Source: a phage. From it: a stretch of DNA of 64,000 bases. Shown here one piece after another: positions 2,485 through 15,309 of the stretch. Positions within the stretch are counted from its first letter, which is position 1, and each line of letters starts with the position of its first letter. The notes under the pieces were generated by a model that ran no database searches, was not told the DNA's origin, and saw only the letters and a list, made by a program, of their open reading frames with translations. A program made the translations under genes and the position numbers. The stretch lies in sequence record PZ452578.1. One strand, written 5' to 3'.

Positions 2485-3065
2485 TATTCACCGCAGAATT
2501 CGTTGATATTTTCCCAGTTTAACTTATTCAAGTTTTTCTTAGGAACATTAAACACTTCAATACCTGCATTTCGCAGAATATCATCCCAGCCAGGTTTATT
2601 TTTATCATATGTTTCGCAATAAACCAGCTTTTTAATACCCGATTGAGCTATCGCTTTTGCACAATCTGGACAAGGAGAAAGTGTTACATACATAGTAGCA
2701 CCTTCAATAGAAGAACCATTTCGTGCAGCAAACAAAATTGCATTTAGCTCAGCATGAATTTCATTTTTAGACGACCATTCAGAGTGAGCGCTGCGGTGTT
2801 CTTTCGCCAAGACAAAACGATCAGTTGAACTAAATGATACACATTCGGGCTTATGACCTTGGATGATAGTATGTTTAGGTTTATTTAGCAACCAACCTTG
2901 CTCAGCAGCATAATCACAACAGTTCACACCCCCTGCGGGGGAACCATTATACCCAGTAGAAATAATACGTCCATTCTTTTCAATTACTGCTCCTACCTTC
3001 CAGGAGCAACATTTGGATTCTTGTGATACTAAATATGCAATTTGAAGTACTGTACTCGCTTTCAT
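2484..3065 (-). CDS. cd: dCMP deaminase (193 aa)
   Basis: Zinc-dependent deaminase motifs HAE and PCxxC (SPCPDCAKAI); 193 aa as T4 Cd. Confidence 0.9.
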   Translation of the reverse strand: MKASTVLQIAYLVSQESKCCSWKVGAVIEKNGRIISTGYNGSPAGGVNCCDYAAEQGWLLNKPKHTIIQGHKPECVSFSSTDRFVLAKEHRSAHSEWSSKNEIHAELNAILFAARNGSSIEGATMYVTLSPCPDCAKAIAQSGIKKLVYCETYDKNKPGWDDILRNAGIEVFNVPKKNLNKLNWENINEFCGE

Positions 3066-3400
3066 TTCATAATCACCAGATAAGCAGATTTAGCAGTTTC
3101 AACACGATAAATTTCGTGACGAAGTTTAGTTATACTTTTAATAACAGAACTAATTATATTCTGCCCATCTTTAAAGCGGTTTTTCTTATCAATAAAAACT
3201 GCGCCAACCATCTTTTTGTGAAGCTCAACTGGATACTTCGTCACAATAATAGCATCATACACAGAAGGATGAATACTATTCACCAGAGTATCATTCATTA
3301 AAGTTATTCTAATGAACTGTGCTGTTTCAGAATCAAGCGCTCTATGATCGCCAGTATCATTTTCAAGACAATTATCAATTATATCAGTTAAATTCATCAT
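3062..3400 (-). CDS. hypothetical protein (112 aa)
   Basis: Track ORF, start overlaps upstream gene stop (coupled arrangement). Confidence 0.45.
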   Translation of the reverse strand: MMNLTDIIDNCLENDTGDHRALDSETAQFIRITLMNDTLVNSIHPSVYDAIIVTKYPVELHKKMVGAVFIDKKNRFKDGQNIISSVIKSITKLRHEIYRVETAKSAYLVIMK

Positions 3401-10030: not shown

Positions 10031-12295
10031 TCATAATTTACAGGATGAACAATCTTCAGCTTTTGGAGTTTCTATTTCATAATCATCAGTACCAGAACCA
10101 TCACGGGTATTATGATAATAGAAATTTTTTCCGCCAAAATACCAAAAATACAAAAGGTCATCAATCATTATTGACATTGGAACCTTTCCTTTTGGAAAAA
10201 TCTGTGGGTCATAATATGTATTCGCTGAAGCTGATTGACATACCCATTTCAGCATAATAGCTACCTGCGTAAGATAAGGTTTATTACCTTTCTTAGCTAA
10301 TTTCCATGTATAATCATAGAGGTCTATGTTATGCTCAATATTGGGCACGACTTGATTAAAGGAGCCCTCTTTTGATTCTTTAACAGAGACTGGTCCACGT
10401 GGAGGCTCGATACCGTTTGTACTGTTAGAAACTTGGGAAGATGACTCACATGGCATAAGTGCTGATAATGTGCTATTACGGATGCCAAAGAGCTTAAGGT
10501 CTTCCCGCAGCGACGACCAGTCACAAACGTATTTTGGAGCTGCGATTTGGTCAATCTTTTTATTGTACCAGTCGATAGGTAATTCGCCTCGAGACCAACG
10601 AGTGTCTGAATAATATTCACAAGGTCCTTTTTCTTTGGCGAGCTTAATGGATGCTTTAATGAGTCCATACTGTAATCTCTCAAATAGTTCATGTGTTAAA
10701 TCGTTAGCATCTTCATAAGAAGCAAAGTTACTTGCCAGCCAAGCTGCATAGTTAGTAACACCTACACCGAGGTTACGACGCTTTTTAGCTTTTTCTGCTT
10801 CAGGAACTGGATATCCTTGGTAATCCAAAAGATTATCAAGAGCACGAACTTGGACTTCTGCCAATTCATTAATTTTATCTTGGTCTTGCCAGTCAAAATT
10901 ATCCAGTACGAATGCAGAGAGAGTACACAATCCAATTTCAGCATCAGGACTATTCACATCATTTGTTGGAATAGCAATTTCACAGCACAAGTTACTCTGA
11001 CGAATAGGTGCCTTTTCACGAATAAACGGAGTATAGTTATTCGTATTATCAATGAACTGTACATAAATCCTTGCTGTTCCTGAACGTTCAGTCATGAGCA
11101 ATTCAAATAGTTCACGGGCTTTAATACGCTTTTTACGAATATTAGGGTCTTTTTCTGCTGCTTCATATAATTCACGGAAACGGTCTTGGTCTTTAAAATA
11201 AGAATAATAAAGCTCGCCACCCATTTCATGCGGACTGAACAAAGTAATGTAATCGTTCTTTCCGAATCGTTCCATCATCAAATCATTCAGTTGAACACCA
11301 TAATCCATATGACGAATGCGGTTTTCTTCTACGCCTTTGTTATTTTTCAAAACGAGAAGATTTTCAACTTCCAAATGCCAAATAGGATAATAAGCAGTAG
11401 CAGCGCCGCCACGAATTCCACCCTGTGAGCATGATTTAACAGCAGTCTGAAAATGTTTCCAAAAAGGAATAACACCAGTATGGCGTACTTCACCCATGCC
11501 AATCTTAGAACCTTCGGCACGAATCATACCAACGTTAATACCAATTCCAGCGCGTTTAGAGATATATTCTACAATCGAAGCGGAAGCCTTATTGATAGAC
11601 TTCAATGAATCACCTGCCTCAATAACAACGCATGAACTAAACTGCCGAGTCGGAGTACGGCAACCAGCCATAATAGGAGTTGGCAATGAAATCTGTCGAG
11701 TAGATACTGCTTCATAAAAACGGATAACGTGTTTTAGTCTATCAACAGGTTCATCTTGATGCAATGCCATTCCAATAGTCATAAATGCAAACTGCGGAGT
11801 TTCATAAATTTGACCAGTGGTTTTATCTTTAACTAGATATTTTTCTTTTAATTGCATCGCTCCGGAATAAGTAAATTCCATATCCCGCTCGTGCTTAATT
11901 TTTGATTCTAAAAATGTAATTTCTTCCGCAGAATATTTTGACAATAATTCAGGGTCATATTTACCTTCATTTACACAGTAAGAAATATGGTCAATAAATG
12001 AACGTGGTTCATACTGCCCATAAACATGCTTACGAAGAGCAAACATTAAACAGCGCGCAGCTACGTATTGATAATCAGGCTCTTCAACTGAAATAGAATT
12101 CGCAGCAGCCTTAATTACAATGGTTTGAATATCATCAGTTGTCATTCCATCACGGAGATAAGATTTAATATTTTCATATAATTCATAAGGATCTACTGAT
12201 GTTCCTTCAGCTGCCCAAGACAAAACTTTAATAATTTTTTGCGGGTCAAAGCTCTGAGAAACACCACTACTTTTGATAACATTAATTAATTGCAT
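10031..12295 (-). CDS. nrdA: ribonucleotide reductase large subunit (754 aa)
   Basis: 754 aa as T4 NrdA; class I RNR large subunit. Confidence 0.9.
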   Translation of the reverse strand: MQLINVIKSSGVSQSFDPQKIIKVLSWAAEGTSVDPYELYENIKSYLRDGMTTDDIQTIVIKAAANSISVEEPDYQYVAARCLMFALRKHVYGQYEPRSFIDHISYCVNEGKYDPELLSKYSAEEITFLESKIKHERDMEFTYSGAMQLKEKYLVKDKTTGQIYETPQFAFMTIGMALHQDEPVDRLKHVIRFYEAVSTRQISLPTPIMAGCRTPTRQFSSCVVIEAGDSLKSINKASASIVEYISKRAGIGINVGMIRAEGSKIGMGEVRHTGVIPFWKHFQTAVKSCSQGGIRGGAATAYYPIWHLEVENLLVLKNNKGVEENRIRHMDYGVQLNDLMMERFGKNDYITLFSPHEMGGELYYSYFKDQDRFRELYEAAEKDPNIRKKRIKARELFELLMTERSGTARIYVQFIDNTNNYTPFIREKAPIRQSNLCCEIAIPTNDVNSPDAEIGLCTLSAFVLDNFDWQDQDKINELAEVQVRALDNLLDYQGYPVPEAEKAKKRRNLGVGVTNYAAWLASNFASYEDANDLTHELFERLQYGLIKASIKLAKEKGPCEYYSDTRWSRGELPIDWYNKKIDQIAAPKYVCDWSSLREDLKLFGIRNSTLSALMPCESSSQVSNSTNGIEPPRGPVSVKESKEGSFNQVVPNIEHNIDLYDYTWKLAKKGNKPYLTQVAIMLKWVCQSASANTYYDPQIFPKGKVPMSIMIDDLLYFWYFGGKNFYYHNTRDGSGTDDYEIETPKAEDCSSCKL

Positions 12296-12612
12296 AAGTC
12301 CTCAACTTGAAAATCGTCTTTAAACAATCGGTTAACTATATGAGCTATTATATCACCATGACACGGCTTTGGTTTACATGTGCATCCTAGCCTCATTCCA
12401 CGTAAAGGCTCTAAATGTGCTTTAGTTATTTCTCCGGATTTAATTCGACGTATAAAATCTTTTTTGAATAATTCAATGGCAGCCTCCCGGCTGCCAGCAT
12501 CTTTACCGACGTAATTTCCCCAAAATGTACCACGGTGAATATTAACATCAAAGTCGGATTTATATTTATTCACTACCTGGCATAGACGGCCCGCGCGGTG
12601 ATAATTCGTCAT
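12286..12612 (-). CDS. hypothetical protein (108 aa) with C-terminal Cys/His cluster ([13 protein letters not shown]), DUF4326-like
   Basis: Track ORF; stop overlaps nrdA start; motif resemblance only. Confidence 0.45.
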
Positions 12613-12841
12613 ATTGTTTTTCCGTTAAAACAGTAATATCATAGTAACAATCTGAAGAAGTTTTAACTGTAGAAATTTTATTATCAAAATACTCACGAGT
12701 CATTTTATGAGTATAATATTTTTTGCCATAAATGATAATAGGCTGATTTGGTCCTGGAACTTCTAACTCGCTTGGATTAGGAAGTGTAAAAAGAACGACA
12801 CCAGAAGTATCTTTAAATCGTAAAATCATATATCCTCGCAA
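12566..12841 (-). CDS. hypothetical protein (91 aa)
   Basis: Track ORF between td and nrdA; overlaps neighbour by about 45 nt; start uncertain. Confidence 0.35.
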
Positions 12842-12852
12842 TTAAATTAAAA

Positions 12853-13713
12853 TTATACCGCCATTTTTCCTTTCAAGACACCGTGGGACTGATAATCTTT
12901 GAGAACGAAATCTTTAGGCCTGAGTTTAAGAATGTATTCCAATTGTTCTTTAGTAGAAAGATAGCGGAATTTATAAGGCAATCCGCCTATTACCAGTTCA
13001 CAAAGCTCTTTAGGTTCACGACGCAAAATTTCTTTACACTGTTCTACGTGATTCATATAGATATGAGTATTACCGCCAGAAAATATCAAATCTCCAGGAA
13101 TAAGATTACACATCTTAGCTACAATATGAACTAACGCAGCATATGATGCAATATTAAATGGAAGACCGAGGAAAACATCTACCGAACGTTGATACCACTG
13201 CAAATCTAAATAGCCATTACGCACATTAAACTGATAGAACATATGACAAGGCGGTAATGCCATATATTTAAGTTCAGCTGGATTCCACGCAGAAACAATT
13301 TGACGCCTATCATTTGGCAGTTTTTTAATACGATCAACAACTTCTATAATTTGGTCTACACCGCCAAAATCACGCCACTGTTTTCCATAAATTGGACCAA
13401 GTTCACCGCTATGGTATCCTAAATCTTTTGCCTGATTTTCGTAATTTTCATCCCAGACTGTTTTGCCTTGGATTAACGAATCGTGTTGAATTAATCGTAA
13501 ATCATTAACATTTGTGCTTCCTGATAAAAACCATATTAGCTCAGCAATGCATGCATTCCAGGCGAGCTTTTTAGTTGTTACTGCAGGAAAGCCTTTAGTT
13601 AAATCCCAACGCAATTTAGTACCGAACAGAGCAATTGTTCCTGTGCCCGTTCGGTCATCGGTTTCATAGCCATTTTCAAAAATGTCTTTAATTAAATCTT
13701 GGTATTGTTTCAT
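12853..13713 (-). CDS. td: thymidylate synthase (286 aa), uninterrupted
   Basis: Continuous 286-aa ORF with T4 Td N-terminus MKQYQDLIKDIFENGYET; no intron. Confidence 0.9.
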   Translation of the reverse strand: MKQYQDLIKDIFENGYETDDRTGTGTIALFGTKLRWDLTKGFPAVTTKKLAWNACIAELIWFLSGSTNVNDLRLIQHDSLIQGKTVWDENYENQAKDLGYHSGELGPIYGKQWRDFGGVDQIIEVVDRIKKLPNDRRQIVSAWNPAELKYMALPPCHMFYQFNVRNGYLDLQWYQRSVDVFLGLPFNIASYAALVHIVAKMCNLIPGDLIFSGGNTHIYMNHVEQCKEILRREPKELCELVIGGLPYKFRYLSTKEQLEYILKLRPKDFVLKDYQSHGVLKGKMAV

Positions 13714-13758
13714 TTAGTACCTTATATAAATTATAATACATTTTATGAAGCTAAATAA

Positions 13759-14106
13759 TCAATACGGTTTAGCATCAAATTTTCTCTCAATTTCAGGTGT
13801 GAAATATAATTCTTTACCACGTTTGGAAAAGCGACCAATAATATGATAATTATTCTCATCAAACGTAATATTACCAATATCCATAGCTTTCAACCAAATA
13901 TCGATATTTCTATCCAGCTTTATGTCAAAATTCCAATACAGAGAACTATTACCGAAAATACTGCAAGCGGATTCAGTGAAACAACTGCTATAAATCTTGT
14001 CTTTAGGAACTACTAATTGATAGACACCTTTAATAAACTGAGGACCCTGCCACTTTGGCTGTTTCTCGTCTTTTTCTAATAGAATAGGGTAATAATTAAA
14101 ATTCAT
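13759..14106 (-). CDS. hypothetical protein (115 aa) lying between frd and td
   Basis: Track ORF; no recognised motif. Confidence 0.45.
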   Translation of the reverse strand: MNFNYYPILLEKDEKQPKWQGPQFIKGVYQLVVPKDKIYSSCFTESACSIFGNSSLYWNFDIKLDRNIDIWLKAMDIGNITFDENNYHIIGRFSKRGKELYFTPEIERKFDAKPY

Positions 14107-14125
14107 ATTTCCGCCACGCGTTATT

Positions 14126-14710
<585 letters not shown>

Positions 14711-14965
14711 TCAAAACCCCCTTTCAATAAACCATTCAGTGGCTTTATTAGCATCAAAGAATAATTCTTCATATGTCTTTTCTTTGTTTTCAAAAACTGT
14801 CACACAAACACGTTGACATTCTCCACAGTATTCTTCTGACATACTTAAAGCGTCAGAAAACATTTCTTTAAATTCATTTAAATCAGGATTATGCAATGCG
14901 TTAAAAATTGCATAATCGAATTCATCATTCATAAATTCAAATACAAAAATCATATTACCTCCCAC
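14711..14965 (-). CDS. hypothetical acidic protein (about 80-84 aa)
   Basis: Track ORF upstream of frd; start uncertain. Confidence 0.4.
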   Translation of the reverse strand: MGGNMIFVFEFMNDEFDYAIFNALHNPDLNEFKEMFSDALSMSEEYCGECQRVCVTVFENKEKTYEELFFDANKATEWFIERGF

Positions 14966-15309
14966 TGAAAGGGGCCAGAAGCAAATCCGCTATCTTTAAT
15001 CATTTTAACTAAAGTTACCATTCCTCTGTTAACTGCTTGTGAGATTTCATCAAAAACTTCATCACTATCACCATAAAGATCGCTAAAAAGTTCTAACACG
15101 TTCTTCTGAACTTTTAATTTACAGCCAACAAATTCGCCTACAGTAAATTCGTTTCCGCCAACTCCAGCGTAAAACGTAATTACACCAGTTAATGGTCTTT
15201 CACTAGAACATAGGTCGTGTGATAAATTAATATAAGCCGTCCCGGGTGCAGTTTTAAGTTGGCAACGAATACTTACTCGAGCAATTCCAGCTACACGAAT
15301 GTCAGACAT
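14950..15309 (-). CDS. hypothetical protein (119 aa)
   Basis: Track ORF. Confidence 0.45.
   Translation of the reverse strand: MSDIRVAGIARVSIRCQLKTAPGTAYINLSHDLCSSERPLTGVITFYAGVGGNEFTVGEFVGCKLKVQKNVLELFSDLYGDSDEVFDEISQAVNRGMVTLVKMIKDSGFASGPFQWEVI

Follow-up and report, generated by a model that had tools for sequence, protein, structure and literature searches.

The window that we analysed is a 64,000-nucleotide stretch of phage DNA belonging to a Tequatrovirus genome, whose nearest relatives over 12 kb are AR1 and RB27 (about 97%). Early nucleotide-metabolism genes lie within it in the operon order gene 32 ... frd - td.1 - td - nrdA.2 - nrdA.1 - nrdA. The frd gene, which encodes dihydrofolate reductase (193 aa), was identified from the ORF list and by its Pfam match (DHFR_1, E=3.1e-19) at positions 14126..14707 on the minus strand, and the intronless td gene for thymidylate synthase (286 aa) was identified in the same way (Thymidylat_synt, E=6.4e-94) at 12853..13713, also on the minus strand. 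Between these 2 genes is an ATG-initiated ORF of 348 nt and 115 aa (13759..14106, minus strand), bounded on the frd side by a 19-nt spacer, AATAACGCGTGGCGGAAAT (14107..14125), and on the td side by a 45-nt spacer (13714..13758); both spacers were read on the minus strand from the sequence and the junction strings. The coordinates and ORFs agree with the first-pass annotation, which had placed a 115-aa ORF between the end of frd at 14126 and the start of td at 13713.

Alignment with T4 and inspection of the junction strings revealed a 9-nt direct repeat, TAAATGAAA, on either side of this segment. The left copy (14124..14132, minus strand) extends across the stop codon of frd (TGA at 14128..14126), and the right copy (13708..13716, minus strand) includes the start codon of td (ATG at 13713..13711). 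The sequence also contains a two-codon mini-ORF, ATGAAATAA, that overlaps the frd stop (14121..14129, minus strand); it lies partly within the direct repeat, and its ATGAAA corresponds to codons 1 and 2 of td.

The regions flanking frd and td displayed features of their own. Upstream of frd (14711..15309, minus strand) are ORFs of 84 aa and 119 aa that vary among relatives; the AR1 counterpart of this region (143321..143922) includes AR1_245, annotated as being without a database match, and T4 has a different gene set upstream of frd (frd.1-frd.3). Between td and nrdA (12286..12841, minus strand) are an nrdA.2-like ORF (91 aa from a TTG start; 264 nt as annotated in relatives) and the nrdA.1 ORF (108 aa; DUF4326 in relatives), which overlap by 47 nt, as they also do in T2H, AR1 and AdolfPortmann.

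The 115-aa ORF is td.1, an already catalogued gene whose function is unassigned in databases. Residues 4-111 match PHROG 1928 (E=3.3e-36), and the protein is 100% identical to one from vB_EcoM-UFV13 and 98% identical to T2H Td.1 (ABI48932.1, AY262132.2), the record in which the label td.1 is used. The same ORF is labelled RB32ORF229c in RB32, T6, RB14 and RB51, and AR1_242 in AR1, where it is annotated as a 'conserved hypothetical protein'. T2H Td.1, RB32ORF229c, AR1_242 and PHROG 1928 represent one and the same gene, with the same 348 nt, the same slot, the same spacers and 98-100% amino acid identity; we found no material difference between them, and all are annotated 'hypothetical protein' or 'unknown function'. 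A literature search found no functional study of RB32ORF229c, td.1, PHROG 1928 or AY262132. The earlier description of the ORF as having no recognisable family is accordingly right with respect to Pfam, but not with respect to PHROG 1928.

We measured the distribution of td.1 using several searches. A 701-nt query covering the junction matched 537 phage records, and the match extended over at least 80% of the query, and thus included the ORF, in 353 of these; records with the ORF include T6, RB14, RB51 and RB7. By tblastn, 590 phage records contained a td.1 homologue, 363 of them at 90% or greater amino acid identity (~360 Tequatrovirus). The remaining 227 records were less than 60% identical, and their hosts include Klebsiella, Enterobacter, Pectobacterium, Citrobacter and Kosakonia, among others. 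Searched against the 64-kb window, the td.1 family profile identified the 115-aa ORF (7.9e-41) and no paralogue elsewhere in the window. A scan of genome and metagenome contigs with a narrow td.1 alignment added only close relatives, and when 1.8 billion representatives were searched exhaustively with the profile, about 20 diverse relatives were recovered, 95-119 aa in length and in no case fused to another domain. Two long hits of the profile search (P0021 and P0024) were rejected, being low-complexity repeats and not td.1 relatives.

Td.1 is under purifying selection. Pairwise dN/dS values (Nei-Gojobori) ranged from 0.03 to 0.22 among Tequatroviruses and came to 0.13 between the two relatives that are 63-66% identical (L025 and L026), all of them comparable to the values for frd and td. 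The dS of td.1 was likewise similar to that of frd, whereas its GC content was lower (31.9%, compared to 37-38% for frd and td). In principle, the ORF might be a non-coding spacer or regulatory stretch that is open by chance and not expressed as protein, and we found no direct data on td.1 expression. Against such a view stand the low dN/dS values, a frame that is intact in 587 of the 590 tblastn records (in each of which the match spans at least 80% of the protein), a conserved family with invariant residues and a confident AF2 model, both discussed below. Nor did the region behave like a structured RNA: Rfam gave no meaningful match in it, all scores falling far below the gathering score, and comparison with shuffled sequence detected no significant RNA structure in either spacer, the 19-nt spacer and td.1 initiation region being less structured than shuffled sequence (z-score of +1.9). 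We regard the probability that the ORF is non-coding as practically nil.

Some BASEL annotations instead treat the gene as a free-standing or degenerate homing endonuclease gene, the label 'putative homing endonuclease' being present in AdolfPortmann, TadeuszReichstein, AndreasVesalius and FriedrichMiescher. Such a label has a certain appeal, as td.1 adjoins td, a known homing hotspot (I-TevI), and is present in some and absent from others of a set of otherwise collinear genomes. Td.1 shares with Seg, Mob and I-TevI this presence/absence polymorphism between close relatives, as well as residence in a region rich in such elements. The BASEL methods describe a comparative-genomics approach to locating the intron boundaries that go with putative homing endonucleases, and they name no protein domain on which the label would be based. 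In our Pfam search, an HNH, GIY-YIG, LAGLIDADG or other nuclease domain was found at E<=1 in none of the 24 family members, and neither NCBIfam nor PDB sequences gave a match. The invariant residues of the family are Q, W, G, G, K and G, which include no catalytic set of His, Asp or Glu. Moreover, the gene holds a fixed slot across genera with a divergence that parallels that of Frd, and the similar dS of td.1 and frd gives no sign of a recent sweep. Seg and Mob proteins are longer than 115 aa. Td.1 differs from them in being much smaller, in having neither a nuclease domain nor catalytic residues and in its vertical descent at a fixed position. We consider a homing endonuclease extremely unlikely and reject the label for td.1, in agreement with the earlier opinion that the ORF does not look like one.

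Other features of td itself vary among these phages. The td group I intron with I-TevI is present in T4, the T6 record MH550421, Lutter, a G8-like phage, PYPS2T and a Gelderlandvirus-like contig (loci L002, L004, L006, L011, L024 and L028). Td.1 and the td intron occur together in Lutter, T6 and L011, indicating that they are not mutually exclusive. Td is also strikingly mosaic within Tequatrovirus: compared to AdolfPortmann (L001) and L012, the window Td is only 84% identical with a dS of about 1.0, while the adjacent Frd, Td.1 and NrdA are 98-100% identical. These values suggest that a recombination breakpoint lies at the edge of td or within it, possibly related to pressure from I-TevI.

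The T4 junction is organised differently. In the T4 record (OZ209023, locus L002), frd (1094-1675) and the td CDS (1672-2223) share a 4-nt ATGA overlap, in line with the overlap of a few nucleotides given in the first-pass annotation, and alignment of the frd-td junctions confirmed that the whole segment with the ORF is missing from T4. Relative to T4, the window contains 416 extra nt, which include td.1 and both spacers; this length equals the spacing of the 2 copies of TAAATGAAA. The T4 junction, GTATATAAATGAAACAATACC, has exactly one copy of the repeat. The flanking 3' end of frd and 5' end of td are 96-100% identical between T4 and the window, Frd as a whole is 98% identical, and over its first 40 nt T4 td agrees with the td.1-type allele and not with the orf68-type one described below. 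The 2 junctions also differ in how td is expressed: T4 td is translationally coupled to frd, whereas in the window td lies behind its own spacer, with promoter-like and Shine-Dalgarno-like sequences.

Within Tequatrovirus the frd-td junction exists in 3 allelic forms, containing td.1 only, orf68 only or neither gene. The first, with the td.1a copy alone, is found in this phage, T2, T6, AR1 and RB14/32/51, and in about two thirds of Tequatrovirus genomes. The second accounts for about a quarter of these genomes, examples being REP4 and PYPS2T. The third, empty allele is present in T4, RB55, RB59 and a few dozen others; it is the rarest of the 3, and many of its records are T4 or close derivatives. 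We do not uphold the view, implicit in the first-pass annotation, that an unrecognisable ORF forms an unusual insertion here, since the same ORF occupies the same place in T2H (as td.1) and T6 (as RB32ORF229c), represents the majority allele of the genus and has homologues in the frd-td slot of other genera.

Orf68 encodes a 68-aa protein; in REP4 and PYPS2T its junction with frd is ATGA and that with td is TAATG. At 90% or greater identity it was present in 135 records, and hhalign detected no similarity between it and td.1 (probability of 0.4%). Its coordinates are 1672-1878 in L003, 2672-2878 in L004 and 4670-4879 in L025. Homologues of about 43% identity occur in unrelated Phapecoctavirus phages, and in PYPS2T and vB_EcoM_P8 the gene is mis-annotated as 'flagellar biosynthesis protein'.

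Outside Tequatrovirus, td.1 homologues of 26-45% identity occupy the same frd-td slot in other genera, the family being found there throughout the Tevenvirinae of enterobacteria. The order frd - homologue - td is annotated in Mosugukvirus PM2, Jiaodavirus phiA85 and Moonvirus Merlin, where the stop codon of one gene overlaps the start codon of the next. We scanned 24 loci with the family profile and the window Frd, Td and NrdA. A family member was detected in 21 of them, every time between frd and td, the 3 loci without one being T4, REP4 and PYPS2T. Across genera, Td.1 is 26-43% identical to its window counterpart, in parallel with 42-54% for Frd. Most non-Tequatrovirus genera have a second ORF in the slot, td.1b, which is a diverged paralogue of td.1a as measured by hhalign (probability of 98.7% for PM2 gp192 and 97.4% for the 113-aa ORF of L025) and was found in 126 records. 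The tandem pairs of PM2 (gp191/gp192), Merlin (gp260/gp259), Gelderlandvirus, Karamvirus and others belong to the same family and the same slot as the window td.1. They consist of two paralogues with overlapping stop and start codons, sometimes accompanied by orf68; in contrast, the window possesses only the a copy, set off by short non-coding spacers. The complete array, frd - td.1a - td.1b - orf68 - td, was observed in 2 lineages, one represented by the metagenomic contig L025 and the other by phages L014/L015 (~175 kb). As in the tandem pairs, stop and start codons overlap where these genes meet, orf68 included. The L025 versions of td.1a and orf68 are respectively 63% and 81% identical to those of Tequatrovirus. 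Our analysis shows td.1 to be a genuine, vertically inherited, protein-coding accessory gene of T-even-type phages that is not peculiar to this phage.

Because the full array and homologues in the slot exist in other lineages, the Tequatrovirus alleles look like nested deletions. On the simplest reading, the td.1 array would be old, the 3 alleles would have arisen as nested deletions of it and td.1 in the window would be a retained ancestral gene. We infer that the T4 junction is the remnant of a 416-nt deletion between the 9-nt repeats in a td.1-type ancestor, and that T4 probably represents a derived, deleted state and not the reference state. The similarity of the flanks provides weak evidence on the direction of the change, since recombination is rampant among these phages.

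The opposite direction deserves consideration, because re-insertion into a T4-like junction could have left a target duplication, and the 9-nt repeat, in which a td-like ATGAAA comes just behind the stop of frd, could be read as one. In its stronger form, td.1 would be a recent moron-like insertion into an ancestral T4-type overlap, which duplicated a 9 bp target (TAAATGAAA) and brought a promoter of its own for td. Consistent with this possibility, the direct repeat flanks the extra 416 nt, its left copy keeps the first two td codons as the mini-ORF, the Tequatrovirus td.1 is set off by spacers where the gene overlaps its neighbours in other genera, and its GC content is below that of frd and td. 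A recent arrival is nevertheless at odds with homologues in the same slot of at least 6 other genera at a divergence proportional to that of Frd, with the full arrays of L025 and L014/15 and with the rarity of the T4-type junction. Furthermore, no transposase, integrase or nuclease is present that would make the target duplication. We judge a recent insertion highly unlikely, and prefer deletion in the T4 lineage on the basis of the outgroup synteny and the lack of an enzyme able to make the duplication.

The spacers of the td.1 allele are themselves conserved. The 19-nt spacer is nearly invariant among td.1-bearing Tequatroviruses, and the 45-nt spacer is identical in 7 of the 8 td.1 alleles compared. 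The 45-nt spacer holds the ribosome-binding region of td, and the ACTAA with which it closes is similar to the 3' terminus that orf68 has in other alleles. A consensus scan identified a sigma-70-like pattern, TTGATT-18-TATTAT, at 13762..13733 (minus strand) and no terminator-like site; inspection of the same spacer also revealed AGCTTCA, which resembles a MotA box, followed by TATAAT. The phage Lutter record likewise has a promoter annotated at this position. We treat this promoter-like element as putative, as it is a pattern match only. Judged by the layout of the junction, td is no longer coupled to frd in the td.1 allele. In L010 and L013 (td.1 at 3001-3354 in both), the td.1 alleles end in ...DAKPLII (117 aa) rather than ...DAKPY (115 aa); this ending stems from a small indel immediately ahead of the stop codon, and the same indel makes the spacer to td shorter.

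At the protein level, a 24-sequence family alignment displayed 6 invariant positions (Q16, W19, G27, G91, K95 and G97) and 5 near-invariant ones (L9, Y29, N79, F93 and F102). These are contained in 2 motifs, LLExDxxQ(K/P)KW ... HG(I/V)Y and GN(I/V)xF ... IIGRFxKxG ... F. Family members are aromatic-rich and mostly mildly basic (pI of 7.7-9.4), and Td.1 found no match in Pfam (searched with 24 family members), NCBIfam, PADLOC or PDB sequences. An AF2 model built from the family alignment was confident (pLDDT of 91.9, pTM of 0.84); an earlier model from 4 close sequences was poor (pLDDT of 59) and was set aside. The model contains strands at residues 6-12, 27-34, 62-64, 80-82, 86-96 and 99-104, together with a helix at 68-77, and Td.1 is predicted to be a small beta-rich domain with an OB-like strand order, beta1-beta2-beta3-alpha-beta4-beta5.

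The invariant residues map to the beta1-beta2 loop (K-Q-x-K-W) and the beta4-beta5 hairpin (G-R-F-x-K-x-G). Comparison with solved structures gave no significant match to any of them and no significant superposition on known OB folds. The weak matches were mostly to OB-fold ssDNA binders (RPA14/32, SSB, Stn1-Ten1 and Teb1), in which the order of elements is the same as that predicted for Td.1. In a viral structure library, good matches were restricted to uncharacterised proteins of T4-like phages, including those of Serratia, Erwinia and Aeromonas. The beta1-beta2 loop and the beta4-beta5 hairpin (L12/L45) make up the usual ligand face of OB folds, and in the model the conserved K, R, W, F and Y residues of Td.1 would lie there.

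Our best guess, a tentative one, is that Td.1 may serve as a binding module alongside thymidylate/dNTP synthesis. We arrived at this reading because of the OB-like order of elements in the model and the location of the invariant residues in the beta1-beta2 loop and beta4-beta5 hairpin. Td.1 would be a small, soluble, mildly basic, aromatic-rich, single-domain protein without a catalytic signature, acting as a non-enzymatic module that binds nucleic acid or a partner protein; it would be produced together with Frd and Td, and might tune or tether thymidylate/dNTP synthesis. A tie to the T4-type dNTP synthetase complex (Td, Frd, NrdAB, gp42, gp1 and gp32) would be supported by gene linkage and by the translational coupling of td.1 to frd/td, which is seen in many other genera. 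That complex was defined in T4, which is itself without td.1. Linkage to frd and td could, on the other hand, reflect mere tight packing of early T4-type genes. Since T4 lost td.1, the protein is dispensable under laboratory conditions, and the absence of the gene from T4 and about a third of Tequatroviruses indicates that it plays no essential role in dNTP synthesis.

We likewise questioned whether Td.1 is a host-takeover or anti-defence protein that inhibits a host factor or immune sensor, in which case it would have no tie to Frd or Td, its position would be historical and host-specific selection would account for its gain and loss in this genus. A small, non-enzymatic, phage-only early gene that is dispensable in T4 would fit such a role, as would the variation between td.1, orf68 and empty alleles within a single genus. 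Tandem paralogues and a faster rate than that of the neighbouring genes are, moreover, typical of arms-race genes. In contrast, the frd-td position is kept across many genera, with translational coupling, and selection is strongly purifying, not diversifying. The lack of similarity to PADLOC or other defence-related proteins also speaks against it, albeit as a weak point, given that PADLOC covers defence and not anti-defence proteins. We consider an anti-defence role unlikely, though with some real chance of being correct.

A more specific proposal is that Td.1 and its paralogue adopt an uncharacterised small fold and form an accessory, possibly heterodimeric, subunit of thymidylate/dNTP synthesis that was missed for decades of phage genetics because T4 deleted td.1. 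Td.1 might, for example, bind Td or Frd, or tether both to nucleic acid. We view this proposal as quite unlikely. The overall explanation that we favor, and regard as probable, is that td.1 is an old gene, lost in T4, that would encode a binding module and travel with the nucleotide-synthesis genes.

As a discovery td.1 is of small value: it is already on record as a conserved hypothetical gene, and T2, T6 and hundreds of related phages carry it. T4 is the exception at the frd-td junction, and a difference from T4 is for this reason a poor criterion of novelty. One practical outcome is the removal from td.1 of the misleading 'putative homing endonuclease' label. The value that remains lies in a compact, well-conserved, phage-only family that includes tandem paralogues, is encoded inside the nucleotide-synthesis operon and has a confident predicted model to which no solved structure gave a significant match. 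It is a family that has been invisible to T4 genetics, and its predicted fold is possibly an unclassified one.
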